A DNA stretch of 41,089 nt from a virus (lineage: Duplodnaviria; Heunggongvirae; Uroviricota; Caudoviricetes): the IMG/VR virus record IMGVR_UViG_2563366819_000008. One strand, written 5' to 3'. Shown piece after piece: positions 8,935 to 28,910 of this stretch. A program made the translations under genes and the position numbers. The notes below the pieces were generated by a model. The model was not told the DNA's origin, did no database searches, and saw only the letters and a list, made by a program, of their open reading frames with translations. Within the stretch, counting starts at the first letter, position 1; each line of letters begins with the position of its first letter.

Positions 8935-8940
8935 AAACAA

Positions 8941-8956
8941 GGCCGCGAAAGCGGCC
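8941..8956 (-). terminator. GNRA-type hairpin GGCCGC-GAAA-GCGGCC, with U-run on the minus strand
   Basis: On the minus strand it follows the lipoprotein stop and the 12-bp palindrome and is followed by TTGTTTTT. Confidence 0.5.
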
Positions 8957-8957
8957 T

Positions 8958-8969
8958 GTGACATGTCAC
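8958..8969. repeat. 12-bp perfect palindrome GTGACATGTCAC (copy 1 of 3)
   Basis: Contains the TGA stop of the 8966..9346 lipoprotein gene; adjacent to terminator hairpin. Confidence 0.8.
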
Positions 8970-9346
8970 GCAACGCAATTATTACCGCGCCATGTAACAT
9001 TTTTAATAATCTTATCAGCACCAAACTCAACGTAAACAGAGCAACTGAAATGGAGTGTATAACCGCCATCAGTTGTTGCGTATGTGTTTGAATATATAGT
9101 ATTACCAATTAGATTAGACGTAGTATTATACGTTGTGGTTTGTGGTACGTTATAACTACCAGAGCTTGAGTAAACATACACTCTGTTTCCATCTGGAGAT
9201 GTAAGCTCTCCCTGAGGATACCCCCACTGCTGAACCATTGCGTCTATACTCTGCCCGCGCCACGTAAGCATATTTCTTTCAAACTGTGCAGCTGACTGGC
9301 ATCCAACGAGAAGCATAAATCCAAAAATCAAAAATACTTTTCTCAT
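8966..9346 (-). CDS. Lipoprotein of unknown function (cargo gene; superinfection-exclusion candidate)
   Basis: Start at MRKVFLIFGFMLLVGC with lipobox; RBS agggg; Thr/Ser/Asn/Tyr-rich mature domain. Confidence 0.55.
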   Translation of the reverse strand: MRKVFLIFGFMLLVGCQSAAQFERNMLTWRGQSIDAMVQQWGYPQGELTSPDGNRVYVYSSSGSYNVPQTTTYNTTSNLIGNTIYSNTYATTDGGYTLHFSCSVYVEFGADKIIKNVTWRGNNCVA

Positions 9347-9431
9347 AATTACCCCTATCATGGAAAAACAGCACCAATCCACAAATTAACTAGTTATTTT
9401 ATTATTCTTCCGAACAATACAATTCCGAATA

Positions 9432-9557
9432 CTACAAAGCCGAACCATGCCGCTGCACGCAACAGAGATTCCAATTGAAACCCATTTTTATCAAAATGTA
9501 TGAATAGCATAAAAACGCTGCACATATTAGTACAATAAAAGTTATTTGAACCATCAT
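9432..9557 (-). CDS. Possible 41-aa hydrophobic membrane peptide
   Basis: ATGATG preceded by RBS ggaga; hand translation MMVQITFIVLICAAFLCYSYILIK...; competes with the 62-aa track ORF 9394..9582 in another frame. Confidence 0.3.
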   Translation of the reverse strand: MMVQITFIVLICAAFLCYSYILIKMGFNWNLCCVQRHGSAL

Positions 9558-9565
9558 ATCTCCTT

Positions 9566-12040
9566 TTATTGCGGAGTGACATCCTGTGGTCGCCACCAGT
9601 ATGTCTGGTTAAACTCTTTCTTCGAACGTTGCTCCATTTTACGCAAATAGCCTGGTGAAAAATACTCCTGCATCTGGTTAAAGATCATGTGATCGAGAGC
9701 CGCCTTCAAGTACCAGAGATTCGCACCAGGCATCAAACCTTTCCCCAGCTTCACCAGATCACCACCAGTCTGCTCACTCTTCCCTTCCACAGCATTTAAC
9801 GGTATGCCCTGAGCAATCTTCACTACGTCATCAACCAGACCAGCTACCGGGCCAAGCATCGACGCCAGCGCGCCGCTTCCGTACCTAGTGTGATCTGACA
9901 ATAAAAAGTCACCGTAAAGGCCAAGACCACCACCTTTCAGTAGAGCACCAAGCCAGAATTTTGCGGCATCTTCTCCTGTCATCTCTCGAGGATTACGACC
10001 AGACGCAAGGTCGTTAAGTTGCTGCGACAAAGCGCCAAGAATGGTCGTACTGGCAATAAACGTCGCAATATATGCCGCACGCCCACCAGCAGACGGCATA
10101 CCCATAGCGCGTGACCAGTGACGCATAACAACCGAGATAGGGAACGATTTAAACAGGAAAACACTTCTCGTTAATTCACCTTTCCATGTTCCACGCTGAA
10201 TACCAGAACCGGTTATCAGTTGCTCACGTGCTCCCGGTGTAATAACAGCCATATCAACTTCTTCAGTTACGGCACCGAGCAGTTTACGCATTGCCTCAAA
10301 TTTCACGCGTTCAGGCTCACCAAGATGTTTAACTGCTGAATCAGGGATACGCATAATGCTTTCCGGTGTCAGCATCGTATTATTACCGTTCCCCCAGTCC
10401 TCCTGTTTCGCCAGCTTCCATACGCTCCAGTCTGTGTCAGTAATCCCTTTGCTTTTCAGGATACGAAAATCAGAGTCATCGAGGCTACGAAGGTCTGGTG
10501 TCCGTGACACTACTTCTCCCAGGCTTCCCATCATGGTTACGCCATAGGCGCGCTTGTGCGCATCTGACCATGCTGTAAGCCCACTGGCACGCATTACCGC
10601 CGTTGCCGCCCAACGAGACACTGACGGCCCCATATTATCCATCGCCCAGCGGTTAACGCTGCCAAGTAGAGATTCCATCGCCAGACCAGCGCGGCGCGCC
10701 CGCGCAAGTTCTGTACGGTTCGTTGGGTCCATAGCTTCAAGCTGGTTGCGGAATAACTGGTTCATTGGAAGGTTGGTAACCTTCGCAGACAGATACATGG
10801 TTCCAAGATCAGAGAACGATGACAGCAACGCGGATCCGAGTCTGCTGGCAACCAGCCAGTTGCGGATATTGTCAGACCATCGCGCGATGTGCGGATTCGC
10901 TACAGGCTGTGTCTTTCCGGAAATAAAGTTGTACAGATTCTCTGTGTTGTTCGCCAGCCGCTCGACTTTACCGGTTTTACTCGGGTTAGCTGTTGCCGTT
11001 TCTGCCTTCACCTGATCAAGAAGAGAGCGGAAAACATGATCGGGGTTTGGGCCATATGTTTCCACCAGTGCAATATCTTTACTGATACCTTCCAGGTGAC
11101 AGACCATGATTTCCCATAGAGAGCGATCGCCATAAAGTTGCTGATATTGCAGATAGGAATCTGCATCTTTGAAATGTATCTGTCGTGATGCATTACCACG
11201 GTTAGCACGTGCGCCGGAAATTCGCATTCCGGTATCAGTAAGCTTATTCAGCCCACCAGTAGCGATCGTGTTATAAGCCTCTCCAAGAAATGAAGACAAC
11301 TCGGCATCGTTCATCAGTTGTCCATCGGCTCGGATATAATATTTGCGATCCAGCTTACCTATAACATCGCTAACCCACTTATCCTTTGATACTGCCCCAA
11401 CCTTTTCCATAGAATGATGTTGAGGGATCCCCCAGTTTTCGAGATAGCCAATGTCCCCACCAGCATCATTAAACCGGCGGCGCAGCAGCTCTGTAACTTC
11501 TCTCCACGCCTTAGCACCGTTTCTTGCTTTAGCATTGCCAGTATTTTGCCCCCGCATTTCATATACCAGGTCACGTACGCCCGCTTCATCTTCAAACAGA
11601 CCAAAAAAGCGAGGATCAACTGCTTCGAATGCCTCCTGCAATTGACTCAATGCATAATCACGGGTGGCTTTTGTTCTGGATTCAACAGAGAGGAAATTAG
11701 ATTTACCGTCTGCATTAAAAGCTATAGTACGGTTAAGAGCGCCAAGTTTCCCATCAGCCCCTTGATAGCTATTGATAAATTTATCCAATCTCTGACGCGC
11801 GGCTATAGTGAGAGCCACACGACGTTTATTTAATGCCGCTTCTCGCTGTAATTCTTCAGATGCCAATTGTGCTGCTCGATATAGCCGCTCTGATTCGGAA
11901 AGTTGTCGCCACGACATAGTGTCATCACGAGCAATGGAGCGCATATTTCGATAAATGCGGTCTTCAATGTTCTGTATTTCTCGCGCCGTTAACATGCGCT
12001 GCGCCGCCTGCTGAACCGCTTGTATACATTCCTGTCTCAT
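9566..12040 (-). CDS. Internal virion (core/ejection) protein, 824 aa
   Basis: One of four consecutive structural ORFs between tail tubular genes and the accessory island, as in podoviruses; no motif recognised. Confidence 0.5.
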   Translation of the reverse strand: MRQECIQAVQQAAQRMLTAREIQNIEDRIYRNMRSIARDDTMSWRQLSESERLYRAAQLASEELQREAALNKRRVALTIAARQRLDKFINSYQGADGKLGALNRTIAFNADGKSNFLSVESRTKATRDYALSQLQEAFEAVDPRFFGLFEDEAGVRDLVYEMRGQNTGNAKARNGAKAWREVTELLRRRFNDAGGDIGYLENWGIPQHHSMEKVGAVSKDKWVSDVIGKLDRKYYIRADGQLMNDAELSSFLGEAYNTIATGGLNKLTDTGMRISGARANRGNASRQIHFKDADSYLQYQQLYGDRSLWEIMVCHLEGISKDIALVETYGPNPDHVFRSLLDQVKAETATANPSKTGKVERLANNTENLYNFISGKTQPVANPHIARWSDNIRNWLVASRLGSALLSSFSDLGTMYLSAKVTNLPMNQLFRNQLEAMDPTNRTELARARRAGLAMESLLGSVNRWAMDNMGPSVSRWAATAVMRASGLTAWSDAHKRAYGVTMMGSLGEVVSRTPDLRSLDDSDFRILKSKGITDTDWSVWKLAKQEDWGNGNNTMLTPESIMRIPDSAVKHLGEPERVKFEAMRKLLGAVTEEVDMAVITPGAREQLITGSGIQRGTWKGELTRSVFLFKSFPISVVMRHWSRAMGMPSAGGRAAYIATFIASTTILGALSQQLNDLASGRNPREMTGEDAAKFWLGALLKGGGLGLYGDFLLSDHTRYGSGALASMLGPVAGLVDDVVKIAQGIPLNAVEGKSEQTGGDLVKLGKGLMPGANLWYLKAALDHMIFNQMQEYFSPGYLRKMEQRSKKEFNQTYWWRPQDVTPQ

Positions 12041-12045
12041 TTAAT

Positions 12046-13848
12046 TTAACCTCTCAAGAAACACGCCACAGCGACATCAAACAGGCTGGAATCCTGTATT
12101 GCCTGCTCACTTTCCCTGTTCGCTTCATCCAGTGCTTCACGCGCACTGCGCGATTGTGGATTACCATCATCATCCAGCACGGTGATTATCATGTCAGGTG
12201 ATTCAAGCAGCGAGTCTTCAGCTATGCGCAAATCAATATCTCCTGCCTGATCTGACATCATTTTTTGTTCTGCCTGTTGCAATATTTTATCAGGCTCAAA
12301 AGGAGCTACTTCGTCTGGCGTCCTGACCTCTGCTGTTTTATAGAATGAAACAGCCTGAGCATTAAGTTCACTTTCTGCCTGCTGTCTCCGAGCCAGTTCT
12401 GCTCGAGCTTCAAAAAACTGACCGCCAGGCTCATGCGGTGCCAACGCGTTACGAGAAAATTCCAGGCGTTCTTGTGCCTGCCGGATTCGTTGGTCAATAT
12501 CGCGAAGTCTGGCCTGTTTATCTGATCGAGCACGAGATAAAGCCTTACCGCTACCGGCTGGATCTTCTGCAAGAATTTGTGCGCGCTGTTCAGTGAGATT
12601 TTCAATAATTCGTTGGCTATTAGCGATTTCAGACTGGTAAACCTGTCTATCGCCACGCGGCAAAAGCTGCGCGGCCTGTTCTTCAAGCAACCGATTTTCT
12701 ATAGCGCGCGCCGTTACTCCATCATCTACAGATGACAGAGCCTCATTAACTGCCTGAGACAGCAGACTCTTGCGTCCAGGAATTTCACTGAAAGATGCAG
12801 ACTCAACAATGCTGGCAACGTCTACAGGTCTCCCCTGGCTAACATCAGACATGGCTTTTCGCAGAGCCTGAATGTGCGAATTACGCGAAAGCACGTTGAT
12901 CGGCACGCCGGGAGCAATATCAATTTCAGCATGATGAGCGGCATTCGCCGCCAGTGCAGCATCGATATCAACTGGTGAAAAATTTGGTGCGCTTGTAGAC
13001 TCGCCGCGAGAGTTAATAAATCTGCCGACACCACCAAACGCCACCCCAAGAACAGCATCAATAGCAATTGCCTGTCGATCCAACACATCATACTGGTTAG
13101 CCATTTCGCTATAGCCACCATCACGAAGCGTTTTTGCAGTAAGCCCACGCTGTGCCATACCGAACGCAATATTTGTACCTGCGGCATAGGCAATATCTGG
13201 CGTTGCACGTACTGCTGTTGCTGCGGCGCGTCGCACTGAACTTTCACCCGTCCGCGCAAGCTGAGCCGCCACACCTTCCGCCAGCGCACCACCAGCACGT
13301 AACCCGAGGCTCATAGGGATCAGTGTTCCGGCACCAGCAGTAATACCCTGCACTAATCCCGCTTCCTGCGCCGTCCTGAAATCAACACCCTGTGCTGTAA
13401 GCCGTTCAAACTCAGAAAAACCCTGTAGAGAAGTTACCGCCGCAGCACCTCCGACCGGACCACCGAGCGTTGTACCGACAACAGCCTGCCCGCCCATATC
13501 GAACAACCCATAAAGGACCTGCCCGGCGGTTCCGGTTGTCGCGGCATCAGGCGTCAGCCGCTTAACCTGCTGCTCTGCTAGTTTTCTCTGCTCAGCAATG
13601 TATGAAACTGAAGTGTCATTGATCGAGGTGTTTTCGTTAACAAACTGAGCAATCGGGGATACGATTTTATCCATCCCTGCCCATAGCAACTGATCTGGCT
13701 TTGCCACCAGCCCGGAGTACAAACCAGACAATGCCGCTCCTACAGCATTGTCGAAAAAACCAACATCGCTGTTAAAGCCAGCTGGATTTGATGCTGCTTC
13801 GTCAAGCTGCTGATTCTGGTTTACTGGATTAAGGCCAAAGTAACTCAT
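12046..13848 (-). CDS. Internal virion protein, 600 aa, Ala/Gly-rich
   Basis: Position in virion operon; low-complexity Gly/Ala segments. Confidence 0.45.
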   Translation of the reverse strand: MSYFGLNPVNQNQQLDEAASNPAGFNSDVGFFDNAVGAALSGLYSGLVAKPDQLLWAGMDKIVSPIAQFVNENTSINDTSVSYIAEQRKLAEQQVKRLTPDAATTGTAGQVLYGLFDMGGQAVVGTTLGGPVGGAAAVTSLQGFSEFERLTAQGVDFRTAQEAGLVQGITAGAGTLIPMSLGLRAGGALAEGVAAQLARTGESSVRRAAATAVRATPDIAYAAGTNIAFGMAQRGLTAKTLRDGGYSEMANQYDVLDRQAIAIDAVLGVAFGGVGRFINSRGESTSAPNFSPVDIDAALAANAAHHAEIDIAPGVPINVLSRNSHIQALRKAMSDVSQGRPVDVASIVESASFSEIPGRKSLLSQAVNEALSSVDDGVTARAIENRLLEEQAAQLLPRGDRQVYQSEIANSQRIIENLTEQRAQILAEDPAGSGKALSRARSDKQARLRDIDQRIRQAQERLEFSRNALAPHEPGGQFFEARAELARRQQAESELNAQAVSFYKTAEVRTPDEVAPFEPDKILQQAEQKMMSDQAGDIDLRIAEDSLLESPDMIITVLDDDGNPQSRSAREALDEANRESEQAIQDSSLFDVAVACFLRG

Positions 13849-16358
13849 TGCGGAATATCTCCGGAGAATCTCTGACGCTTCTGTGTCAGATTAAGAACAA
13901 CGGGAGAACCATCATCTTTCAGCAGATAACCAGTACCAAGTTTCACCAGGTACTGACTATCGCCGTAACTTTGCAAACCATACTGACCAGGCGGTGTTTT
14001 TATCCCGGAGCCGACAACTTGTTCATTCCAAGCCTGATTAACCTGCTTATCGAATTGCTCTGCAGACATTCCCCACGGCAAAAGGACATTCCCCATTCCG
14101 TTATAGTCATGCACGCCACCTGTAGCTACGTTAACAGCCTGTTTCCAGACATCATTGTCAATTTCGCCTGATACCACGCCTTTTTTCGCCATCACACCAG
14201 CGTAATAATCCTTTGCGATCTCGTATGCCATTGATGCGCCCTGAGCGTCACCAGCAAATGCATCCTTCACCATGTCAGAAAACTCAAGGCGAAGATCAGC
14301 ATCTTTAGGCATCGGAATACCTTTCGCATCATCAGTACCTTTACGAGCCGCCGCGCCAGCAAGAATTGTCTGCGCAGCGGTTTCAGGAGACACGGAAACA
14401 TCCGGATTAAACCAGTTTTTTTCTGCCAAAATACCACCAGGCTTATCCATCAGTATCCCGGCAACGGCAGCAGATGGAGCGTTGGCACTGATCTGCTGTA
14501 GTGCTGACATATACACCTGCCCACCACCAGTGCTCTGCCTGATGGTATCGAGATATGCTGCCTGTTGGGAAACTGGAGCATCACGAAAGAAAACACCGAT
14601 CTGATTGGCCTCGTCTTTGGAAAAGAACGTCAGTAGAGTGCCATATGACTTAGCAAGGTCACTGACCTGAGCGGCACGCAAGGCAACGCTCTGTCCAAAG
14701 TTATCCTTATTGCTCATGTCGATAGGCTTTGCCTGTCCGGAGGCAAGAGAGAACTGCACAGGATCCGACTGCCGCTGCTTTATCACCTGATTTGCAGCCG
14801 AAACAACGTTGTCATAAAGAGTTGCGCGTGCCGCATACCCCTCCCCTGTATCACCAGTATCCGGGCGTAATTGCTCAACATATGCTGTAATGCTGCTTGT
14901 CGGCATGTTGCGGAAAGAGCCTATATACTGTCCGGCGATCTGCGTATTCTTAAACTCGGTATATCGCAGGTTTCCTTCTCTGACTCCATAAGCTGCAATA
15001 AAATCATCCTCACCAGGTGGGTTAGGAAATTCAATGCCACGCATATACGCAGCCGTCGCATCGCGAACCCGGCTGTCGAGCATCGTTTTATATTCAGCCT
15101 GCTGTTGTCTGGCTAGTGCATCAGTCTGTCGCAACACGCTGGCCTGATCTGATTCACTTAAAGCATCGAACCAGGCTACACCGGTATAACGTTTATTTTT
15201 TGTCGGTAGCTGAGAAAGCCCCAGCGCAGCACTAACACCTGCAGTTAACTGCTGATCACTGTATGGCTGGCTACCGTTTTCATGATGGATAATGGCTGCA
15301 CAAAGCGCCTTCAGGGTATCAGGATTTGATGCATCGAGAGGCTCATCAGCAGAAACGCCAAGTTGTTCGCACACTGCTTTGATATACGACATAGTGTCAT
15401 TTTTATCAGTAGGCGGTGCCCAGCGATTAATTATCTCGCTGACGGTATCAATACCCTGCCGCTGATACGACATCAGGTTCCGCCCTAATGCACGAATACC
15501 GTGTTCAGGGGTTTCGAATTTGGCAAAGCGACCATCATCACCAGTCTGCCCAACCCACGGATTAGTTTTGCTGTATTCAAGATTGCCGGGGTTATTGTTG
15601 CGTATACCGCGGGTACGATCGGAAGAGCCACTATCTGCTACAGCACGGCGAGAACCAGCAGCAGTATCGCTTAACTCTCCGTTTTGCTGTCTTACCTGAA
15701 GATAGTTTGCTCCAATAGCATTTTGAGCAGTTGCTTTTGCTGTTGCTTCTTTAAACTCGATTTTCTTGGCCTGGATTTGCTCGTCACTCCAGCCATGTGC
15801 AATGCCGTAATCCTCAATTTGCTGGAAAGTTTGCTTATTAGCCAATACGTATGCGGCGTTGTCGCCATACAATGCTGCGGCATTTTTACCATTGTTCAGC
15901 AGCGTAGCCTGAAACTGGCCTTCTTCGTAGGCATTTATTTGCCCTATCTCGTGCCGCCCGGCCTGCGTAGTGAACTGAATGCGCTGCTGCTGCGCCTGCT
16001 GCATGAAAGCATTACGAGCCTGTTCATCCGGCAGCGACATAGCCAGTTGTTCGACCTGAGCATCAAACTGCTGCGTATACTCCTGACCTTTTCCAATAGC
16101 ATTTTTCCCTTTCAGGTTAAGCAAACCTGTTTCAGGGTTATTCAGCAGATCGCTGCTTATCTGGCTTAAGCTAAGAGAAGCATCCTGAGCCATAGCAACA
16201 TTCGCACGCTGTTTTGCCTGCGCAATAATACCTGCATATTGCTCTGCAACATCGCCAAGTACATCACCGACATTTGGTGTCTGAAACGATGAGAATCCCT
16301 GCGTCGAAATCCCTCTGCTCTGAACCTGACGGCCCGATGTTGTTGGTACAACTGGCAT
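13845..16358 (-). CDS. Internal virion protein, 837 aa, possible cell-wall-active domain
   Basis: Position; conserved-looking block IRNNNPGNLEY...GIRALGRNL; enzymatic assignment is speculative. Confidence 0.45.
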   Translation of the reverse strand: MPVVPTTSGRQVQSRGISTQGFSSFQTPNVGDVLGDVAEQYAGIIAQAKQRANVAMAQDASLSLSQISSDLLNNPETGLLNLKGKNAIGKGQEYTQQFDAQVEQLAMSLPDEQARNAFMQQAQQQRIQFTTQAGRHEIGQINAYEEGQFQATLLNNGKNAAALYGDNAAYVLANKQTFQQIEDYGIAHGWSDEQIQAKKIEFKEATAKATAQNAIGANYLQVRQQNGELSDTAAGSRRAVADSGSSDRTRGIRNNNPGNLEYSKTNPWVGQTGDDGRFAKFETPEHGIRALGRNLMSYQRQGIDTVSEIINRWAPPTDKNDTMSYIKAVCEQLGVSADEPLDASNPDTLKALCAAIIHHENGSQPYSDQQLTAGVSAALGLSQLPTKNKRYTGVAWFDALSESDQASVLRQTDALARQQQAEYKTMLDSRVRDATAAYMRGIEFPNPPGEDDFIAAYGVREGNLRYTEFKNTQIAGQYIGSFRNMPTSSITAYVEQLRPDTGDTGEGYAARATLYDNVVSAANQVIKQRQSDPVQFSLASGQAKPIDMSNKDNFGQSVALRAAQVSDLAKSYGTLLTFFSKDEANQIGVFFRDAPVSQQAAYLDTIRQSTGGGQVYMSALQQISANAPSAAVAGILMDKPGGILAEKNWFNPDVSVSPETAAQTILAGAAARKGTDDAKGIPMPKDADLRLEFSDMVKDAFAGDAQGASMAYEIAKDYYAGVMAKKGVVSGEIDNDVWKQAVNVATGGVHDYNGMGNVLLPWGMSAEQFDKQVNQAWNEQVVGSGIKTPPGQYGLQSYGDSQYLVKLGTGYLLKDDGSPVVLNLTQKRQRFSGDIPQ

Positions 16359-16370
16359 CTTATTATCCCC

Positions 16371-20779: not shown

Positions 20780-20823
20780 TCCTGCAATAAAGGGGCCGAA
20801 GCCCCTTGTCTGATCCGCGAGGC

Positions 20824-21168: not shown

Positions 21169-21169
21169 C

Positions 21170-21607: not shown

Positions 21608-21658
21608 CTTCTTTCTCCATTAGTGGGCCTGTTGCGGCCCACAGGTTAATAACAGGCG

Positions 21659-22651
21659 TTACACCACGCGGGCTTCTGTTTCCAGAAGTGCGTCAGTTTC
21701 GCGAATCGGCACACCACGAAGTGCTGTCCACCATTCGCCTTCTGTCTCTTTCACGCTGATCGCCAGAGAACTCTTCTCCAGAGATTGCAGGTCAAGCACT
21801 TCGTTAATGGTTCTGTTCATGTAGAAAACAGGACGTCCCATCCCACGATTTGGGATTCGATGAAGGGCACGAATCATCAGTTTTGCGATATTCGCGGCAG
21901 TAGAAGGAGCGTCAAGATTACTGACATCAATGTTTGCGATACGAACTACATAGCGCCAGTCACGTAATGTCAGCCCGTTGTCCCACTTATAATGGGTACG
22001 ATAACCTTCGTACTTGCCGCCATTAGCATCTTCCAGTGTCACCTGACCTTTATCTTCCATCTGAATGCCAGCCTTCTGCCCTTTCGGGAAGATGCCATGC
22101 ACGGTGTTTTCGCCCCACACCACTAACCAGATTGAAGTGTTATCTGTACCCGTGCCACCAGCATCAATGATGTTCTGAGCATTACCCGCAGACAGGCTGG
22201 AATAGCGGGAGGACAGTCCCATAAACTGCTGAGGGTTAACGCTGGAATCACCGTAAAACAGCGTCTGCGCCATCGCCTGATTCATCGCTTCAATAAATGC
22301 TCGGTCTTCAGACAGGCGGAATTCGGCAGTATTACCGTTCAGATCAGCCAGAGACTTATCGACTTCAGCATAGGTTTCCAGCATGCCAATGGAATCAGTG
22401 ACCTGCACCGTTGTTGATTTGCTCGGTTGTACGCCATAGTTCAGCAAACGCCAGGTAGCGGAAGGTAAACCAGAACGAATGGTGGTTCGGTGTCCGGTAG
22501 GAAGGTTTCCTTCAACAAAAGGCATATCCTGAAGGATTGGGTTAGTTTGACTGAGAAGCTCGATAATCTTATCGACTTTCCCGTTTGGATCGACGCGCTT
22601 ACCCCAGTCAGCCAGCGTTAGCGCAGTTAAGCCTTTAACAGCCATTGTCAT
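21659..22651 (-). CDS. Major capsid protein (330 aa)
   Basis: Size and position directly after scaffold gene; strong RBS. Confidence 0.6.
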   Translation of the reverse strand: MTMAVKGLTALTLADWGKRVDPNGKVDKIIELLSQTNPILQDMPFVEGNLPTGHRTTIRSGLPSATWRLLNYGVQPSKSTTVQVTDSIGMLETYAEVDKSLADLNGNTAEFRLSEDRAFIEAMNQAMAQTLFYGDSSVNPQQFMGLSSRYSSLSAGNAQNIIDAGGTGTDNTSIWLVVWGENTVHGIFPKGQKAGIQMEDKGQVTLEDANGGKYEGYRTHYKWDNGLTLRDWRYVVRIANIDVSNLDAPSTAANIAKLMIRALHRIPNRGMGRPVFYMNRTINEVLDLQSLEKSSLAISVKETEGEWWTALRGVPIRETDALLETEARVV

Positions 22652-22659
22652 TTCCTCTC

Positions 22660-23355
22660 TTATTTGCCATAGAGCACTTCGGCCGCACTACGCTGGCCTT
22701 CATTACCACCGGTGACCATGCCATCTTCAGACATCGCCTTTCCGATTTTCACGAACGTTTTGACCAGATCAGGGTGATTACCCAGCCCGGTGGTGTTCAG
22801 ATATTCTTTGAGCTCAGGTGTCCCGAACTGGTCAAGCGCACGCTGTGCGGCGCTAAGGTTAGAAATCAACTTGTCGCCACCGATTTCTTTGTCAGCTTTT
22901 ACATCCGCAGCCCACTGCTCGGTTGTTTTCTGCCAGGCTTCTGCCTGGCGCTGCTGAACACCTGCCAGAATCTTCGGATAAGCATCAACCAGCTTTTGCG
23001 CTTGCTCGTTGGTCAGGTTAAGTTCTCGCGCCACAGGCTCGAATTCCTTCAACGCTTCTGTATCCAGCTCTACGCCTTCGGCAGCCTGAAACTCGTACTT
23101 CTCAGGCGCACCCTCTGGTTTATCGCCGTCCTTTTTTTCATCCTGCTTATCGTTTTCAGGCTTTTTGTCATCAGCAGGTTTATCGCCATCAGCAACAGGT
23201 TGTGGCTTATCACCTTCCGATTGTGATGGATCACCAACTGGAGCATGGTTATCACCTGCAGGCGCTGACGGTTCTGACGCAGCCGGAGCTGCTCCACCAT
23301 CGACTGGTTGCTCATTGCAAAGACGGCGATACAGCAAACGCTCAAATAAATTCAT
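22660..23355 (-). CDS. Scaffolding protein
   Basis: Acidic, low-complexity Pro/Asp/Lys-rich N-terminus and helical C-terminus; between portal and capsid. Confidence 0.55.
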   Translation of the reverse strand: MNLFERLLYRRLCNEQPVDGGAAPAASEPSAPAGDNHAPVGDPSQSEGDKPQPVADGDKPADDKKPENDKQDEKKDGDKPEGAPEKYEFQAAEGVELDTEALKEFEPVARELNLTNEQAQKLVDAYPKILAGVQQRQAEAWQKTTEQWAADVKADKEIGGDKLISNLSAAQRALDQFGTPELKEYLNTTGLGNHPDLVKTFVKIGKAMSEDGMVTGGNEGQRSAAEVLYGK

Positions 23356-23357
23356 GA

Positions 23358-23654
23358 TCACTCCTGTTCACTGGCCTCTTTGGCCATCTTCAAATACTGT
23401 TCAGGGCAATGCGCCATAACGCGCTGAAACAGTTCCAGCGCCAGATTGCGTTGCCCCTCATTAAATGCCATTGCCATAGCGTCCATCGGTGAGATAGCGG
23501 AAAACACACGGCCTTTCTCCAGCACCGACCAGACAACGCGACGCCCCTGTTCACTGCTCATGACAAAGCGAATGTCATCAATTTCACGCTGTGCCATGTC
23601 ACGTTGCTTACGGGCGTTTTCTTCTTTCAGTTGATCATCTTCGTAATCTGTCAT
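23358..23654 (-). CDS. Hypothetical small protein between portal and scaffold
   Basis: Overlaps portal stop; conserved position in head module. Confidence 0.4.
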   Translation of the reverse strand: MTDYEDDQLKEENARKQRDMAQREIDDIRFVMSSEQGRRVVWSVLEKGRVFSAISPMDAMAMAFNEGQRNLALELFQRVMAHCPEQYLKMAKEASEQE

Positions 23655-25330
23655 TGTGATTGCCCACCCTGACCACTAACTGCATTCGCCATAGCTGACA
23701 AAACACTCGGATCCGAAGTTTTAGCTTCGCTTAGCGTCTTGGCGCCCTGTGCCGCCGCCATTCCCATCGCCATCATTTGTTGCTGCTGTTGCTGCTGTGC
23801 CCGTTGCTGGCGAGCCTGCTCAACCTGTTCCTGCGGAACAATGACGGTTGGAGACACTCCGGACATATCAGCGAATGCATCGATCGCCTGATCAACGTTG
23901 AGTTTGTCGAGAGCTTCTGGTTTCGCTTGCGCAAGTTGACCAATGAAGTTGACCGTAGACGCCAGACTGGACAGGCCGATAGACTTCTGCGCCTGAGCCA
24001 TGACGGAAATGTATTCGACCTTCAGGGGCATACCTTCCATCGCGTCAGGCGGTGGCGGCAGCATGTTTTTACGCACCATCATCGAGAAAGCGCGGTCAAT
24101 GAGAGGATTAAGACATTCGTCGTTCAGACGCTCCAGAACCGGCCCCAACATCAGAAGTTTTTCTTCTTTCATTTCGATCACCGCTTCAACAGGCATCGAG
24201 CGGGTATTGATGTTCTGCAACATCATGAACAGATCGACAAAGTAGGCGCTGTTAATGATTTGACGAGTGTCCTGAATGTCTGCCACCAAATCTGCTGTAC
24301 TGGGGTTAACCAGATAAGCAGGCCTGAAACCATCCTGACCAGTAATCTGATCGATATACGTGATGTCGCCAGGAAGAAGGGAGGCACGCTGATTCTTGAG
24401 GGAAGTCGGAGCAACCATCGGCGGATTGGTGGCTTTATCAATCAACTGCGACTTGCGCTTCTGGAGAAGCTGCAATGCCTTAACAGGTCCAAGCGCCAGC
24501 ATACCCGGGCATGATGATCCATAAACATCTTCGCCGTTAACTTCCCAGCGCGGAGCCATAATTGGAAACTCATCGAATCCGGACTCACGCAACAACTTGT
24601 CGTTATCGCCACCAACCTCGTAATAAACCGATTTGAATGGCTTGTTCTTGCTATCCAGCTTCGATGTATCGCGGTCAATGTTCGGGTAAACCGAATGCAT
24701 CACTTCAATCCACTTCTCGTAGGTGCCGCTTTCCCACATGCTTTTTACGGATTCGCTGACGTTATTTAGCCCGAACTCCTGAACAAGCTGACGAACAGTC
24801 ATAGAGAACTTGCGAAAACAGGTGTCCACACTGCCACGAGGTGAGTTAGCCAGGTAGTAACTGCCTATCGGGAATGGCATTGTGCGAATGATGTCCTCGT
24901 CATCCTCCAGCACCGCCATTGCACCAGTGCTGTATGTGCCGAGGCTTCCGTATAACTGCGGCAGCGACTGATAGAGATTCGACTTATTGAACATATCGTT
25001 CATGCGGTTCTGCACCGCCTCAAGCCACAACTTAACAGGGCCATAATCCATCATTTCAGGATCTGGCGTAGCCAGGCGAAACCACGGACGCGCAGGGCTT
25101 GTGATGCCTGACATCATGCCGCTGGCGAGAGTGCGCGCCGCCATAGTCCCGGTCGAATCAATAATGCGTGTGTTGCGTCGATCGTTACGGTTGACCTCAG
25201 AAGTCAGAAAGCGGGAACCACGCGGGTTGATGTAATCACTCAACTCGCGCCAGTGCGGCTCGAACGACTGACGCTCGCTTTCAAGTTGTGCGAACTGTTT
25301 GTTCAATCGCTCTTTAGTTGTTTCCGCCAT
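23651..25330 (-). CDS. Portal protein (T7-like head-to-tail connector), 559 aa
   Basis: Size, position after terminase, Gln-rich C-terminal tail. Confidence 0.75.
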   Translation of the reverse strand: MAETTKERLNKQFAQLESERQSFEPHWRELSDYINPRGSRFLTSEVNRNDRRNTRIIDSTGTMAARTLASGMMSGITSPARPWFRLATPDPEMMDYGPVKLWLEAVQNRMNDMFNKSNLYQSLPQLYGSLGTYSTGAMAVLEDDEDIIRTMPFPIGSYYLANSPRGSVDTCFRKFSMTVRQLVQEFGLNNVSESVKSMWESGTYEKWIEVMHSVYPNIDRDTSKLDSKNKPFKSVYYEVGGDNDKLLRESGFDEFPIMAPRWEVNGEDVYGSSCPGMLALGPVKALQLLQKRKSQLIDKATNPPMVAPTSLKNQRASLLPGDITYIDQITGQDGFRPAYLVNPSTADLVADIQDTRQIINSAYFVDLFMMLQNINTRSMPVEAVIEMKEEKLLMLGPVLERLNDECLNPLIDRAFSMMVRKNMLPPPPDAMEGMPLKVEYISVMAQAQKSIGLSSLASTVNFIGQLAQAKPEALDKLNVDQAIDAFADMSGVSPTVIVPQEQVEQARQQRAQQQQQQQMMAMGMAAAQGAKTLSEAKTSDPSVLSAMANAVSGQGGQSQ

Positions 25331-25344
25331 TTCAATGACTCCGG

Positions 25345-25551
25345 TTACTGACCAAGCAGCGTTTTACCGCTGGTATTAGCAGTTGATGTGTCGCCCTGAG
25401 AACCGGTAAGCAGCGTAGAACTACGACCAGCAGCAGCGCGACGGCGACGAGTTTCTTCGTCGCGGGCATCAACAACGGCGGCATCCTGCTCCTGTGGTGC
25501 TGCCTGAACTTCTGGTGTTGCAGGCACTGATGGTGAGCTACCCATGCACAT
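25345..25551 (-). CDS. Questionable small ORF upstream of portal
   Basis: Two overlapping frames (25345..25551 and 25332..25571) compete; low-complexity product. Confidence 0.2.
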   Translation of the reverse strand: MCMGSSPSVPATPEVQAAPQEQDAAVVDARDEETRRRRAAAGRSSTLLTGSQGDTSTANTSGKTLLGQ

Positions 25552-25640
25552 ATCAATGACTCCGTACGCAATTAAATTATTACCAATTTAACCACATATG
25601 ATTTATTTATCGTAGACAGTTGACATTTAACGCGCGAATT

Positions 25641-25657
25641 ATTACCTTTCAGGTAAC
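25641..25657. promoter_or_regulatory. Operator-like palindrome ATTACC-TTTCA-GGTAAC upstream of the portal operon
   Basis: Same TTACC-N5-GGTAA motif; TTGACA-like hexamer about 20 bp to the left. Confidence 0.55.
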
Positions 25658-25978
25658 CAAAGAGTTCATTCCGGTTACTAACCTGACTGGCTTGTCGTTA
25701 AATTGAACAGGTGGAGTGAGCTTTTATTTTGAGCAGTACGGCGTATGGCACATGCGACGATAGCGGTCTGGATACGTTTAAGGGGCACCCTCCCTTGCTC
25801 GGGCAAACGAACCAGGTAGCCGGAATGTGCAAGTCGAGCGGTTTTATTCCGCGCACGGGGATTCACCATCCCGGCTATTCGGTGTGACGCCTCGGAAGAG
25901 ACGAGGGTACAACGATGAGAGCATTTATGGAGCCGCGACAAAGTGTGGCGCCTTAACAGGCTAAGTGCTCTCAGCGTT

Positions 25979-26055
25979 GTGGCATTAGCTCAGTCGGACA
26001 GAGCAACCGCCTTCTAAGCGGTTGGTCGCAGGTTCGAATCCTGCATGCCACGCCA
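25979..26055 (+). tRNA. tRNA-Arg, anticodon UCU (reads AGA)
   Basis: Acceptor stem GTGGCAT/ATGCCAC, D arm GCTC/GAGC, anticodon stem ACCGC/GCGGT with loop CTTCTAA, T arm GCAGG-TTCGAAT-CCTGC, 3' GCCA; similar but not identical to host argU. Confidence 0.85.
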
Positions 26056-26098
26056 GAATCACGCCTAAGGACCGTGATGCCAGAAGTTCCAGGTGCTT

Positions 26099-26140
26099 GG
26101 CGGTGATGGTTTCCCTTGAAGGACTATCACCGCCCTTTTT
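26099..26140 (+). terminator. Hairpin (GGCGGTGAT/ATCACCGCC) plus T-run after the tRNA
   Basis: Seen in sequence; long loop, so strength uncertain. Confidence 0.45.
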
Positions 26141-26218
26141 ACAGCAGGACGCCATTGCGATGACTTCATGCTGTAAACCAGTACAGCCACGGAAGGCATA
26201 ACTCATTGCTTCCAGTTC

Positions 26219-26242
26219 GCCCGGTTCGCCGGGCATTTTTTT
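26219..26242 (+). terminator. Intrinsic terminator-like hairpin GCCCGG-TTCG-CCGGGC plus A-T7, immediately upstream of the RBS of the 26254 ORF
   Basis: Seen in sequence; followed directly by aaggtgag and ATG. Confidence 0.55.
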
Positions 26243-26253
26243 AAGGTGAGATC

Positions 26254-26676
26254 ATGAAAACAGCCGACATGCTAGCTAAATATCTAAATGAATGGCCGTG
26301 CAAATATGTACGCATTGTTCAGGGTGATGATTCAATTTTTTATGGTGTTTTTGCAGGAAATGAAATGCTTTGTGAAGCAATTCCAGGTGAGCGACTTGCC
26401 GGGTTAACGCTTAGCGATGACCATGGAATAGGAGTTACTTGCCATGACTGGATTTCAGCGCAGAAAACTGAAATGGAAAAAGGCAATGTGTTTGATATTT
26501 CTCGCGCTGTATACGCCAAAGAAAAAAGTGATGATGATTACATGCGCGAAAACTTATACAACATGAAGTTACAATGCCTGGCTGAAGTGCTTAGTAAAAG
26601 ATCTTTACTTGATGTGGTTGGTGCTGAGCAGGACGCCAAGGCAATCAACGCCGCATTCGATAAAATAACCTTCTAA
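26254..26676 (+). CDS. Hypothetical cytoplasmic protein (140 aa), cargo gene antisense to the late operon
   Basis: Good RBS; no TM or signal peptide; own terminator; no family recognised. Confidence 0.5.
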   Translation: MKTADMLAKYLNEWPCKYVRIVQGDDSIFYGVFAGNEMLCEAIPGERLAGLTLSDDHGIGVTCHDWISAQKTEMEKGNVFDISRAVYAKEKSDDDYMRENLYNMKLQCLAEVLSKRSLLDVVGAEQDAKAINAAFDKITF

Positions 26677-26680
26677 CGCC

Positions 26681-26692
26681 GTGACATGTCAC
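26681..26692. repeat. 12-bp perfect palindrome GTGACATGTCAC (copy 2 of 3)
   Basis: Between the 26676 stop and the terminator hairpin. Confidence 0.8.
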
Positions 26693-26697
26693 AATCA

Positions 26698-26721
26698 GCC
26701 CGCCGATTCGCGGGCTTTTTT
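26698..26721 (+). terminator. Intrinsic terminator GCCCGC-cgattc-GCGGGC plus T6
   Basis: Overlaps the 3' end of terL on the other strand. Confidence 0.65.
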
Positions 26722-28195
26722 ATGCAAAAGGATCATAGTCTGTGATGGCTTTGCCTTGCTGGTTCTGCTGCCCGGGAATTCGCAGACGCTTCGACACAGG
26801 GAACGCAAACGTCAGCAGTAGCGCATCGCCTTTACCCGGCGAACGCCCAAGCCGCTCCTTGATATCTTCCTTCGGTTCGATAACGATTTTACCGTCCACA
26901 CGAACTTTGTACTCTGCTGCCGACAGGTCGTCCGCTGTTTCCTGGTCATCCAGCATGCCGCCGAGCCTCAGCCATGTCTTGCATGAGTTGAACATCTCCC
27001 CACGCTTGTTAAGCATCTGCGGGTCAGTAGACGCGCCACCGAACGGAACAAGTTGCCATGTACGACCCCAGCCGTCACCGATTGACTTCAAACCGGTTCC
27101 GTAACCGAAGTCGATGAACACCGCGTCAGCCTGATACTGGTCTTCAAAGTCAGCGATACGCTTCGCCATAATCAGATCGTCGGTAGTCTTGTTGCCAGTC
27201 CACAGCACCTTACTGTGTAGCCCCTGCCGCAGGTATATCACAGCGTCATCAACGCCGGAGTATGCCGGGTCAACGCCGATTATCACCGGAGCATGTGCAA
27301 CCTGCGCAGCGGTTACCACCCGTTTCATTGCCTCGTCAGTAAGACCGGTAGGGATAAACTGCAATTCAGATGCATCAGGGAATATGCCACGCACACGGAT
27401 TTTAACGAAGTCGCTGTCTTCCCCGTAGTCATCAACCCATTTCTGCAACTGCTGTTTGTTGGTACCTTCCACCGTCCGACTGTCAATCTGCGCAGTTTTC
27501 CAGCGGTGTTTATACTTGCGGAAACATTCACGGAAACGTCCGGTGTTACGAGTAGGGTTTCCGAACGCCACCCAGATAATCTCAGTGTCTTCGTCCGTAA
27601 GCGCACCCTCAGCAACTTCCCACACCAGATCCGCAATGTTCGACGCTTCATCGAATACCACGATGATGCGTTTGCGCTCGTTGTGTAGTCCGGCGAATGC
27701 CTCAGTGTTGTGCTCAGACCAGGGGATTGCGTCAGCTCGCCACCGCTTGTCGTGCCCAGGATCATTGCTGTACATCGCGGTAGCGGTACAGGTAAACCAG
27801 TCTTTCGTGATAGCAAGGTTCGACCACTTGATAATTTCCGGCCAGGTCTTCGTTCGTAGCTGGTTGTCGGTGTTGGCGGTCACCACGACCTTACAATCCT
27901 CGCAAGTGGACATGCCCCAGTTGATCAACATTGAGATGAATGCTGATTTACCAATACCGTGGCCCGAAGCACGTGCCAGCATAAGCGGCTGATAGCGCGT
28001 CTCGGGATTCTGCAGGTGATCACGTATCTCTCGGAACGCATCGGCCTGCCACTGACGTGGGCCGGTAGCATGTGCCAGTTCAGTCCCCTCTTCCCCCCAC
28101 GGGAACGCATAGAGGGCATAGCCAAGCGGATCGTGAGTGAACCCTGCAATATCCTCGATCAACTGCTCTTCAGGAGATAACGCTGCATCTGTCAC
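26720..28195 (-). CDS. Terminase large subunit
   Basis: Walker A-like GHGIGKSAF, ATPase then nuclease domain organisation; overlaps TerS stop. Confidence 0.85.
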   Translation of the reverse strand: MTDAALSPEEQLIEDIAGFTHDPLGYALYAFPWGEEGTELAHATGPRQWQADAFREIRDHLQNPETRYQPLMLARASGHGIGKSAFISMLINWGMSTCEDCKVVVTANTDNQLRTKTWPEIIKWSNLAITKDWFTCTATAMYSNDPGHDKRWRADAIPWSEHNTEAFAGLHNERKRIIVVFDEASNIADLVWEVAEGALTDEDTEIIWVAFGNPTRNTGRFRECFRKYKHRWKTAQIDSRTVEGTNKQQLQKWVDDYGEDSDFVKIRVRGIFPDASELQFIPTGLTDEAMKRVVTAAQVAHAPVIIGVDPAYSGVDDAVIYLRQGLHSKVLWTGNKTTDDLIMAKRIADFEDQYQADAVFIDFGYGTGLKSIGDGWGRTWQLVPFGGASTDPQMLNKRGEMFNSCKTWLRLGGMLDDQETADDLSAAEYKVRVDGKIVIEPKEDIKERLGRSPGKGDALLLTFAFPVSKRLRIPGQQNQQGKAITDYDPFA

Positions 28196-28788
28196 TGATT
28201 ACCATCCTGACGTTCTTTGAGTCGCTTCCTGGCTGCTGCTATGCGATCAGCAATTGTCACATTCACATTAACATCCAGACGTTCTTTGAACGCGTTGACA
28301 TCAACATGCTTACCAATCAGCTCAAGGTTCTTCACCTTGTCAGGCCATTTAATTTTTTTGAGGATTGTCTCTATCGAATCCTCGTTCATGTTCATGATGG
28401 TCGATGACAGATCAAAGCCACTAAGCGTAGTGCGCCAGATTTTCGGCCACTCACGGATTGGTTTAAGGCTCCCATCGTCGTTGAGGATGTCGATCACATC
28501 CATCTGGTCGATCTCCACCAGGCGCATAAGAACGTAATCGGCACTGACGCGCATTCGTTTGTTGCGCTCCTCCATCAGCTCGGCAATCCGTTTTTGAATG
28601 CGTTCATCGCGCATCATGACACTGGCTTTAACTGCCGCTGTATTTGGGGAGAATCCTGCGTTAATCGCTGCCTGAGTCTGGTTTTCAGGCGTTTTGATGT
28701 ATGACTGGCAATAAGCCTCCTGCATTGCTGTTAGTGGCTTAAATTGCGTTGATTTGCGTTTATAGGTTTTAGGTTCAGCAGGCATCAT
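28192..28788 (-). CDS. Terminase small subunit (start moved to MMPAEPK)
   Basis: Position upstream of TerL; track ORF begins at a TTG inside tandem repeats that translate to low-complexity TITTTVTITT, so the ATG at 28788 is preferred. Confidence 0.6.
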   Translation of the reverse strand: MMPAEPKTYKRKSTQFKPLTAMQEAYCQSYIKTPENQTQAAINAGFSPNTAAVKASVMMRDERIQKRIAELMEERNKRMRVSADYVLMRLVEIDQMDVIDILNDDGSLKPIREWPKIWRTTLSGFDLSSTIMNMNEDSIETILKKIKWPDKVKNLELIGKHVDVNAFKERLDVNVNVTIADRIAAARKRLKERQDGNQ

Positions 28789-28795
28789 AACCACC

Positions 28796-28827
28796 GTGGT
28801 AATAGTTACCGTTGTGGTAATAGTACC
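28796..28827. repeat. Tandem everted half-site repeats GTGGTAATAGTTACC / GTGGTAATAGTACC
   Basis: GGTAA-tag-TTACC uses the same half-sites as the operator motif but in everted order, just upstream of terS. Confidence 0.6.
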
Positions 28828-28830
28828 ATG

Positions 28831-28857
28831 CAAAATAAAGCCGCCATAGTTGGCGGC
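28831..28857 (-). terminator. Minus-strand intrinsic terminator GCCGCC-loop-GGCGGC plus UUUAUUUUG in the late leader (tR'-like)
   Basis: Located between the zinc-finger gene stop and terS start. Confidence 0.55.
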
Positions 28858-28898
28858 AGTATTCAAAACCCGTCAAATTCATCATGCATAATCTACTC

Positions 28899-28910
28899 GT
28901 GACATGTCAC
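28899..28910. repeat. 12-bp perfect palindrome GTGACATGTCAC (copy 3 of 3)
   Basis: Contains the TGA stop of the 28907..29248 gene; about 50 bp upstream of the tR'-like hairpin. Confidence 0.8.

Follow-up and report, generated by a model that had tools for sequence, protein, structure and literature searches.

Ribbon-helix-helix (RHH) repressors and their operators, such as the pairs formed by P22 Arc, Mnt, AmrZ, CopG, and the TA antitoxins, are among the closest described systems to the locus reported here. The omega protein of pSM19035 is an RHH repressor that reads 7-bp heptads. MatP, which acts at matS sites, is the Ter macrodomain organiser of enterobacteria and vibrios. TraR/DksA proteins bind RNA polymerase at the rim of its secondary channel, and Q, the factor of the lambdoid Q/qut systems, prefers acting in cis. 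Roadblock operators inside genes or at their 3' ends are exemplified by PurR in purB, LacI O2, and CodY/CcpA. The matS consensus is the 13-bp sequence GTGAC-RNY-GTCAC (PMC3603311, PMC8669397). Members of the TraR/DksA family are small proteins from phage early operons with a DxxDxA tip and a CxxC-N17-CxxC arrangement (PMC9239242), and TraR proteins do not bind DNA (PMC6970531).

Here, we describe a 12-bp palindrome that occurs at three transcription-unit ends in a stretch of 41,089 nt (the window, that is, the whole stretch of DNA that was analysed), which is an epsilon15/phiV10-like (Uetakevirus) prophage. Judged from sequence comparison, a 112-aa protein encoded beside the third copy, hereafter the regulator, most likely binds to the palindromes. 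Like the RHH pairs, the locus combines a predicted beta-alpha-alpha fold with a short dyad-symmetric operator, 7-bp half-site spacing, and an unconstrained centre. It differs from them in that the regulator lacks sequence-family membership and has an extra C-terminal zinc-finger module, and in that the putative operator stands at the 3' end of its own gene, at operon ends, or inside genes rather than over promoters.

The likeness to MatP/matS is close at the level of the DNA site. The GTGAC/GTCAC half-sites are identical, and E. coli matS minus one central base is the window site. MatP also contains an RHH, the host ranges overlap, and in both cases the sites are few, dispersed, and not promoter operators. 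In contrast to matS, however, the site is 12 bp with a strict N2 spacing instead of 13 bp, and the regulator has no detectable sequence homology to MatP, lacks its four-helix bundle and C-terminal coiled coil, is phage-encoded, and is linked to its own site. The window sites were considered as matS and rejected, because all of them are 12 bp and the N3 spacing is essentially absent.

Three palindromes at transcription-unit ends

The palindrome GTGACATGTCAC is present in three exact copies (8958–8969, 26681–26692, and 28899–28910; sites A, B, and C, with no strand assigned), compared with 0.00 expected from 100 dinucleotide shuffles, and the triplication reported in the first-pass annotation is therefore real. 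Allowing one mismatch added a single copy, GTGCCATGTCAC (23591–23602, likewise strandless), which lies inside a gp5-like gene, and the window held no further copy at up to two mismatches. This copy is also found in phiV10, but neither epsilon15 nor Tyrion has a counterpart, which makes a function improbable. When the window was scanned without bias for recurrent 5+5 palindromes, only two families emerged, GTGAC-N2-GTCAC and TTACC-N5-GGTAA; the latter is of the repressor-operator type. Comparison of the junctions across relatives showed that epsilon15, Tyrion, and phiV10 carry the same three sites without a mismatch and in synteny, though the flanks have diverged. The palindrome carries no annotation in the epsilon15 and phiV10 records, and the 12-mer was not found in the text of the literature searched.

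Site A marks the end of the structural (late) operon and overlaps the TGA (8966–8968) of a lipoprotein cargo gene (8966–9346, minus strand; PHROG 3716), which is located between a p21-like gene and the palindrome and whose product carries the signal MRKVFLIFGFMLLVGC and the lipobox LVGC. An intrinsic terminator, composed of the hairpin AGGCCGCTTTCGCGGCCT and TGTTTTT (8940–8957, minus strand), adjoins the palindrome with a gap of 0 nt. In relatives, the terminator side is constant, and the other side holds at least eight unrelated cargo alleles abutting the palindrome, of which the lipoprotein gene is one.

Site B is flanked by a terL-side hairpin and by an antisense cargo gene encoding 140 aa (26254–26676, plus strand; PHROG 4846), whose 3' end points to the palindrome, the TAA (26674–26676) ending 4 nt before it. 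The hairpin AGCCCGCCGATTCGCGGGCT followed by TTTTT (26697–26716, plus strand) begins after a 4-nt gap and is the terminator of the plus-strand cargo gene; its minus-strand version comes after the terL stop (26720) and has no U-tract. At least 7–8 alternative cargo alleles, including the 140-aa gene, abut the palindrome opposite the constant terL hairpin in relatives, and the site B alleles share the arrangement of TAA or TAG, 4 nt, and palindrome.

Site C is found at the end of the early-right operon, upstream of terS, and overlaps the TGA (28907–28909) of the regulator gene (28907–29245, minus strand), which is the last gene of this operon. The intrinsic terminator that ends the operon (hairpin GCCGCCAACTATGGCGGC and TTTATTTT; 28840–28857, minus strand) is 41 nt from the palindrome because the gap is occupied by an 8-codon remnant, ATGCATGATGAATTTGACGGGTTTTGA (28863–28889, minus strand), of a gene for approximately 60 aa that 25 relatives have in intact form immediately after the palindrome. 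Some relatives carry a 186-bp gene inserted directly after the palindrome. A weak promoter-like match at site C, GTGACA-18-CATGAT (9/12), is lost in the relatives with the inserted gene and is absent at sites A and B. The earlier observation that the stops of the lipoprotein gene and the zinc-finger (regulator) gene share one position inside the palindrome was confirmed, both on the minus strand. A terminator hairpin on the strand of the upstream gene was likewise found at all three sites, although the spacings first given as 5, 5, and about 50 bp were only approximate and are 0, 4, and 41 nt.

Definition of the motif across lineages

As judged by its matches in several phage lineages, the 12-mer forms the central part of a 14-bp dyad, YGTGAC-NN-GTCACR, that consists of two inverted 7-bp half-sites. 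Across 3.6 Mb, the N2 spacing alone was enriched, with 317 matches (139, 8, 59, and 111 in four lineage sets) vs 0–4 for the other N0–N10 or everted arrangements. The half-sites are invariant and the centre is variable (AT, AC, CA, GC, CC, or AG), and a purine occupies the flanking position in 124 of 130 flank clusters. In Vibrio loci, a de novo palindrome scan returned GTGAC-N2 as the top repeat.

A terminator starts no more than 5 nt from the motif at 73 of 248 distinct sites, compared with 4 of 400 random positions. The TGA within the motif ends an ORF of 60 codons or more at 34–90% of distinct sites in four of five lineage sets (Vibrio, one of six sites), whereas 7% of random TGAs do so. 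As RNA, the palindrome forms a 4-bp hairpin of -1.2 kcal/mol (z -0.03), no better than shuffles, and it was rejected as an intrinsic terminator itself; the true terminators are the adjacent hairpins. N15 and phiKO2 carry the motif inside coding sequences, in repA and a cII-like gene, and P2-like phages have a single copy tied to one gene.

Linkage of the regulator gene and the motif

The regulator belongs to the epsilon15 gp49/phiV10 p55/N15 gp46 family (PHROG 536), which comprises 216 clusters at 50% identity. The stop codon of the gene occupies motif positions 2–4 in 183 of 204 viral loci and in approximately 33 of 52 species-representative genomes, and this arrangement is found in Uetakeviruses, N15-like phages, P2-like Yersinia phages, and prophages of approximately 30 enterobacterial species. 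Homologues with a different stop position retain the motif 5–9 nt downstream. In Vibrio homologues, the motif is not at the stop, and no motif occurs within 10 kb of the homologues L319, L333, and L360. In all, 16 different flanks lie downstream of the 3' end of the regulator gene, and the motif therefore travels with the gene. The regulator family is the sole protein family common to seven motif-bearing backgrounds, among comparison loci that were retrieved with the gene as bait and not motif-first; both the gene and the motif are absent from lambda, P2, P22, and BcepC6B. Among 5426 complete E. coli genomes, 637 carry the regulator gene together with site C, the gene bearing only the annotation "hypothetical protein".

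Across these loci, the regulator gene and its putative operator are one conserved two-part module, in which the operator begins one base before the TGA. In the genomes compared, only one position of the palindrome is universal: it marks the 3' end of the regulator gene instead of a cargo boundary. The suggestion that the palindrome is a site for a control factor has gained ground, as it behaves like a protein-binding site and a candidate factor is encoded beside the third copy.

Features of the regulator protein

The N-terminal domain of the protein encoded at 28907–29245 is confidently predicted to be an RHH. The predicted fold comprises an N-terminal strand and two helices, as in Arc, CopG, and MetJ, and nearly all top structural matches are RHH proteins. 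No Pfam family matches the window protein, and a comparison of 69 family members with curated RHH families gave only scattered sub-threshold matches (RepB-RCR_reg three times, RHH_5 twice, TacA1, RHH_10, and NikA-like). Across lineages, the half-sites are conserved but the residues of the beta strand that would be expected to read bases are not.

The C-terminal half is a Cys zinc finger that is joined to the RHH via a long helix and has a possible TraR/DksA-like profile resemblance. A 69-member profile searched against PDB sequences gave YbiI and TraR as top matches (E 0.012–0.03), and hhalign against a TraR/YbiI/P2-Orf82 alignment gave a Prob of 77% and an E of 2e-5. In this possible similarity to TraR/DksA proteins (F TraR, lambda Orf73, P2 Orf82, and YbiI), the matching parts would be the long helix, CxxCG..(I/L)P, a Cys further on, and a short helix at the C terminus; the regulator too is small and early-operon-encoded. 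Unlike these proteins, the regulator has no DxxDxA tip, the aligned position being RPGRAP, and its helix is embedded in a DNA-binding domain. Its cysteines C79, C82, C91, and C99 follow a CxxC...C...C pattern without a second CxxC, with the fourth ligand outside a CxxC pair. The predicted structure gave no structural match to TraR.

Proposed mechanism and alternative explanations

Our preferred reading, to which we give somewhat better than even chances, is that the RHH/zinc-finger protein binds the 14-bp dyad at the ends of transcription units and acts there as a boundary or roadblock. The early-right operon yields the regulator as its last product, and dimers of it, probably one per half-site, would occupy all three putative operators. 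Each of these sites lies in the last bases of a transcription unit, 0–41 nt upstream of an intrinsic terminator, and the three units are the early-right operon (site C), the antisense cargo gene beside terL (site B), and the structural operon with its cargo (site A). The bound protein would then meet the elongating RNA polymerase and limit transcription past operon ends or, in other phages, into distal or internal genes. By analogy, putative operators within or at the end of transcription units resemble the roadblock operators of PurR, LacI, and CodY/CcpA. A roadblock is favoured over read-through because other lineages have exact intragenic and intercistronic operators without a terminator to bypass. 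A roadblock immediately before a strong terminator looks redundant.

The same binder could also have the opposite output. As a local antiterminator or late-control factor, the regulator would move from the operator onto the polymerase via its TraR-like module and read through the terminator, and the early, terminase, and structural units would be fused into one late-infection read-through transcript. We regard this as unlikely. The operators do precede the terminators in the direction in which these work, the regulator has a possible RNA polymerase-binding module, and site C follows a logic similar to lambda Q/qut: the regulator gene ends the early operon, its stop is immediately followed by the site, the late genes come after a terminator, and the protein is, putatively, zinc-binding. 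However, the regulator shows no similarity to Q families, sites A and B lack the promoter-like match, that match at site C is not conserved where relatives carry the inserted gene, and further sites are found within genes and at the ends of other operons; membership in the Q/qut antitermination modules was rejected. At site B, the operator precedes a terminator for the antisense cargo transcript only, and read-through would give antisense terL RNA. Every "late" operon has its own TTACC-N5-GGTAA sites (13 copies vs 0.67 expected), so that the need for read-through is not obvious. Besides the regulator homologue, N15 has a Q-like gene of its own, phiKO2 also has a separate Q-like antiterminator, and P2-like phages have Ogr. 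With operators elsewhere that have no terminator to bypass, only some placements fit antitermination.

A DNA-tethered RNA polymerase effector, in which the RHH is combined with a TraR/DksA-like module, is a reading that we hold to be quite doubtful. Such a protein would capture or re-programme the polymerase at operon ends or, like MatP, bridge the sites into per-operon loops or topological domains. To our knowledge, a sequence-specific RHH fused to a TraR/DksA-like module has not been described before.

It is improbable that the palindrome is a recombination or junction signal for acquiring or exchanging cargo (moron) cassettes. At all three sites, relatives stop being similar precisely at the edge of the palindrome, with unrelated cargo genes ending 0–5 nt away, and the first-pass annotation was right to describe the copies as cargo or module boundaries; the position at the 3' end of swappable genes also resembles moron and integron cassette boundaries. 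As an acquisition mechanism, the proposal is unsupported. Flank clustering of 373 distinct sites gave no cargo cluster common to sites A, B, and C or to different lineages, no long attC-like structure is present, and no recombinase adjoins the sites, the nearest being the prophage integrase (39839–41089), which is unrelated in position. Intragenic copies, which had been named as evidence against a junction role, amount in the window to the one 1-mismatch copy, but other phages carry the motif within conserved coding sequences, and the lone copy of P2-like phages also argues against this explanation. As cargo is never common to the three sites, the junction-like appearance probably arises secondarily from a constrained operator. 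Operator and cargo junction coincide because the operator is the last constrained element beside freely replaceable cargo, and any constrained element beside replaceable DNA gives the same breakpoint pattern.

Very improbable, in our estimate, is that a host protein (MatP or another nucleoid or division factor) binds the sites, or that the phage protein is a MatP-like bridging factor looping the genome. The N3 spacing of matS gave 0, 1, 1, and 0 matches in the four lineage sets in which N2 gave 139, 8, 59, and 111, and hhalign against MatP gave a Prob of 0.1–1.5%. The motif tracks the phage gene and not the host, GTGAC half-sites are kept in Xenorhabdus loci, and true matS is avoided by Escherichia and Salmonella prophages (PMC3603311). 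It is scarcely credible that the palindrome acts in the RNA, where a 3'-UTR hairpin would make transcripts more stable or would tune termination, or else translation termination at the UGA that it contains: the palindrome is transcribed at gene 3' ends immediately before terminator hairpins and its TGA closes ORFs more often than random TGAs, but its fold is no better than shuffles, the stem is invariant without compensatory changes across more than 50 species while the centre alone varies, and the motif is retained when displaced from the stop codon.

Implications

If the preferred roadblock reading is true, a function and a cognate DNA site would be assigned to a small, widespread phage protein family, and the sharp look of moron boundaries in these phages would be explained. 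The 112-aa protein and its 14-bp site would represent a compact system for regulation at operon 3' ends instead of promoters. Cross-talk with host chromosome organisation is a concrete question that follows from the near-identity to matS. A DNA-tethered effector, if true, would be a new phage route to insulate cargo genes and operons, and might touch host matS/MatP biology.

Palindrome copies at the ends of transcription units

The window is a prophage of epsilon15/phiV10-like type (Uetakevirus), and the forward direction of the prophage is the window's minus strand. The 12-bp palindrome GTGACATGTCAC occurs in it exactly three times, at 8958 (site A), 26681 (site B), and 28899 (site C), and no copy is expected from 100 dinucleotide-preserving shuffles. 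The first-pass annotation had proposed a search for one-mismatch variants; a window scan that allowed up to two mismatches added a single copy, intragenic and with one mismatch, at 23591. Exact search and reading of the sequence bear out that the three copies stand at gene stops. The TGA stops of the lipoprotein gene (minus strand, lipobox LVGC; 8966-8968) and of the zinc-finger regulator gene (minus strand; 28907-28909) take the identical position within the palindrome, as had been described, and the plus-strand cargo gene ends with a TAA at 26674-26676, 4 nt ahead of site B. Terminator-like hairpins follow each palindrome on the strand of the upstream gene, also as claimed; the gaps, earlier given as 5, 5, and about 50 bp, were measured as 0, 4, and 41 nt.

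Each of the three sites marks where a transcription unit ends. Site A closes the structural operon and abuts the terminator of that operon. Site B has the hairpin that follows terL on one side and, on the other, the 3' end of a cargo gene in antisense orientation, and site C comes after the last early-right gene (epsilon15 gp49 / phiV10 p55), ahead of a terminator and terS. A tRNA-Arg(TCT) gene (25979-26055, plus strand) lies in the cargo region beside site B, antisense to the structural genes, and it alone accounts for the 65 Synechococcus-phage matches in the first similarity search.

A different motif, TTACC-N5-GGTAA, is of the type annotated as a repressor operator in the epsilon15 record. 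It was found 13 times in the window versus 0.67 expected (6630, 7010, 8025, 25642, 28788, 28806, 31853, 31915, 33854, 34191, 34239, 34951, and 35013) and stands at the head of every operon, including those of terS, the portal and structural genes, the tailspike gene, and the ant-like gene. This placement gives each unit the look of having a promoter of its own, and it suggests that the prophage repressor directly controls the "late" operons. As these are the repressor operators, the 12-mer was rejected for that role; as a promoter -35 element it is a weak match, at site C only and unconserved. CCAAAAACGGGA also occurs five times, for the most part at intervals of 24 bp, at 33155-33295 (minus strand) within the replication-initiator gene (32724-33557); the copies are probably origin iterons.

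Linkage of the motif to a putative regulator gene

The exact 12-mer is present at the same three syntenic places in epsilon15 (Salmonella), Tyrion (Enterobacter), and phiV10 (E. coli), save for the third copy in phiV10, which spans the ends of the record and has one mismatch. The adjoining intergenic sequence differs among these phages. The zinc-finger protein has distant homologues, at 31-42% identity, in phages of unrelated groups. N15 and phiKO2 (siphoviruses whose prophages are linear plasmids), the P2-like myovirus Yersinia vB_YenM_56.17, and Vibrio K308, a further background, each have a homologue together with GTGAC-NN-GTCAC, and in N15, phiKO2, and vB_YenM_56.17 the TGA stop of the regulator gene occupies motif positions 2-4. 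Among loci collected with the regulator gene as bait, 183 of 204 viral ones have the stop within the motif; the same is true of approximately 33 of 52 loci that each represent a separate bacterial species, with Citrobacter, Klebsiella, Pantoea, Erwinia, Mixta, and Serratia among the genera. Where another stop codon is used, the motif is kept 5-9 nt downstream (Xenorhabdus, Erwinia, Superficieibacter, and Yersinia ruckeri-type loci). A scan of the Aeromonas lineage found no relatives.

In 3.6 Mb of loci from four lineage sets, the 2-nt spacing between half-sites is alone enriched (139, 8, 59, and 111 matches), and every other spacing from 0 to 10, as well as the everted order, gives 0-4 matches. 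These spacing controls and the shuffles rule out a chance origin of the 12-mer. The half-sites are invariant and the centre varies; next to each half-site stands a base that is a purine in 124 of 130 independent flank clusters, so the unit is 14 bp. As a dyad, the site is of the kind that dimeric DNA-binding proteins typically recognise.

The 3' end of the regulator gene is joined via the motif to 16 different downstream sequences, and the regulator family is the only gene family common to seven motif-bearing backgrounds. Gene and motif are both absent from four control phages (lambda, P22, P2, and BcepC6B), of which P2 shares the backbone of the Yersinia phage and BcepC6B the virion module of the Uetakeviruses. 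Regulator gene and site form a conserved module. A small prophage-like element of Pantoea septica (L337, 10001-11771), in which an AlpA-type excisionase gene and a convergent integrase gene come immediately downstream of the regulator gene and motif, is another distinct genomic background for it. A pac or cos site was rejected, as the N15-like and P2-like carriers are cos phages in which the gene lies away from terminase.

Two further observations concern stops. In epsilon15 (L002), a degenerate copy, GTGACATGGCAT, at 26618-26629 overlaps the TGA stop of an Rz-like spanin gene, and a similar sequence, TGACATGGCAC, comes after the stop of the Aeromonas phage homologue.

Junctions and cargo genes

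Comparison of relatives upheld the boundary claim. At site A, the side that bears the terminator does not change, and at least 8 unrelated sequences abut the opposite side. At site B, the side of the terL hairpin is constant and at least 7-8 cargo alleles end in TAA or TAG, with 4 nt left between stop and palindrome. At site C, 25 related contigs have an intact inserted gene of 186 bp (~60 aa) immediately behind the palindrome; in the window only its last 8 codons are left, as the remnant ORF MHDEFDGF* (28863-28889, minus strand).

The moron-acquisition mechanism that had been suggested for these boundaries was not supported. Flank clustering found no cargo clusters common to sites A, B, and C, and for this lack of sharing cassette shuffling was rejected. 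No recombinase is linked to the sites. Moreover, exact copies lie within conserved coding sequences of other phages, namely N15/phiKO2 repA, a PHROG 2479 gene, and a cII-like gene (PHROG 163, activator) in Proteus, Morganella, and Rouxiella prophages. These intragenic copies of GTGACATGTCAC or GTGACTGGTCAC (comparison loci L352 6412, L354 7427, L353 5732, L341 4584; L328 3890, L326 232, L330 4164; L004 33237, L008 14390) are conserved across genera, while the flanking codons are variable. For these three reasons, we take the sharpness of the junctions to be the mark that a constrained operator leaves beside replaceable DNA and not a sign of an acquisition mechanism.

The putative regulator protein

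The regulator protein has no Pfam family, and its PHROG 536 label, "transcriptional regulator", is nominal only. The family is small (216 clusters at 50% identity, out of 1.84 billion). Its predicted fold is ribbon-helix-helix (RHH)-like; a Foldseek search against the PDB gave nothing significant. The best three PDB sequence matches of the family profile were YbiI and TraR (E 0.012-0.03), and hhalign against a TraR/YbiI/P2-Orf82 alignment gave a borderline similarity (77% probability, E 2e-5, residues 52-109). TraR proteins bind RNA polymerase at its secondary channel (PMC9239242, PMC6970531). Unlike TraR, the regulator protein has neither the DxxDxA tip nor the second CxxC, and no structural search with it found TraR. 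A contact with RNA polymerase, as these profile matches might imply, is a lead and not a result. The top match of the family profile was P0159, a protein of 7287 aa that aligned seven times with the Cys-rich segment (profile positions 61-96); it probably has a repetitive, Cys-rich sequence and no relation to the phage family.

Comparison with matS

The MatP site of E. coli is GTGAC[AG]N[TC]GTCAC, with the consensus GTGACATTGTCAC (PMC3603311, PMC8669397), and the phage 12-mer is this matS consensus less one central base. The one-base difference may matter, because prophages avoid true matS (PMC3603311). Copies with matS spacing are essentially absent from the 3.6 Mb of regulator loci, and the motif tracks the phage gene, not the host. 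MatP homology of the regulator family was rejected, as pairwise and profile comparisons were negative. Host-tracking half-sites were likewise rejected, if not decisively: Xenorhabdus loci keep GTGAC half-sites, although a MatP from Photorhabdus prefers GTTAC (PMC8669397); the matS of Xenorhabdus may be different. Vibrio phage K308 (L006) has one 13-bp copy, GTGACACCGTCAC, at 6769 that fits the matS consensus, alongside three 12-bp copies; the TGA of this copy closes a small gene.

Possible mode of action

The motif occupies the last bases of transcription units, and a terminator starts within 5 nt of it at 73 of 248 distinct sites versus 4 of 400 random positions. We infer that the regulator protein would occupy its sites during lytic growth and, once bound, would act on elongating RNA polymerase. 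A boundary or roadblock action of the bound protein is favoured, because the intragenic and intercistronic operators of other lineages have no terminator to bypass and because each operon in the window has its own repressor-controlled start. A live rival, close to the antitermination function suggested in the first-pass annotation, is that the regulator serves as a local antiterminator. MatP-like looping between sites is more speculative. An RNA-level role is unlikely; the RNA hairpin was rejected because its fold is too weak (-1.2 kcal/mol) and its stem is invariant, without covariation. The observation in the first-pass annotation is confirmed and its interpretation partly supported.

In Pseudocitrobacter, Citrobacter, Kluyvera, and Erwinia dacicola prophages (L317, L318, L325, ~10350-10400; L324, ~10555-10600), a promoter-like TTGACT-17-TATACT lies within 6 nt past the motif, and the same stretch has a LexA-box-like TACTGT-N8-ACAGTA.

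Significance

Nothing relevant came up in literature searches on the 12-mer, on matS-like phage sites, and on N15 gp46, and the ZX5 paper discusses neither the regulator gene nor the site. Judged from sequence, the palindromes belong to an operator family that had not been annotated before and that is tied to an uncharacterised phage regulator, and the module is a putative variant of the RHH repressor/operator theme with an unusual placement at 3' ends. As the regulator gene and site C are present in 637 of 5426 complete E. coli genomes, the module is common, and it is readily testable.
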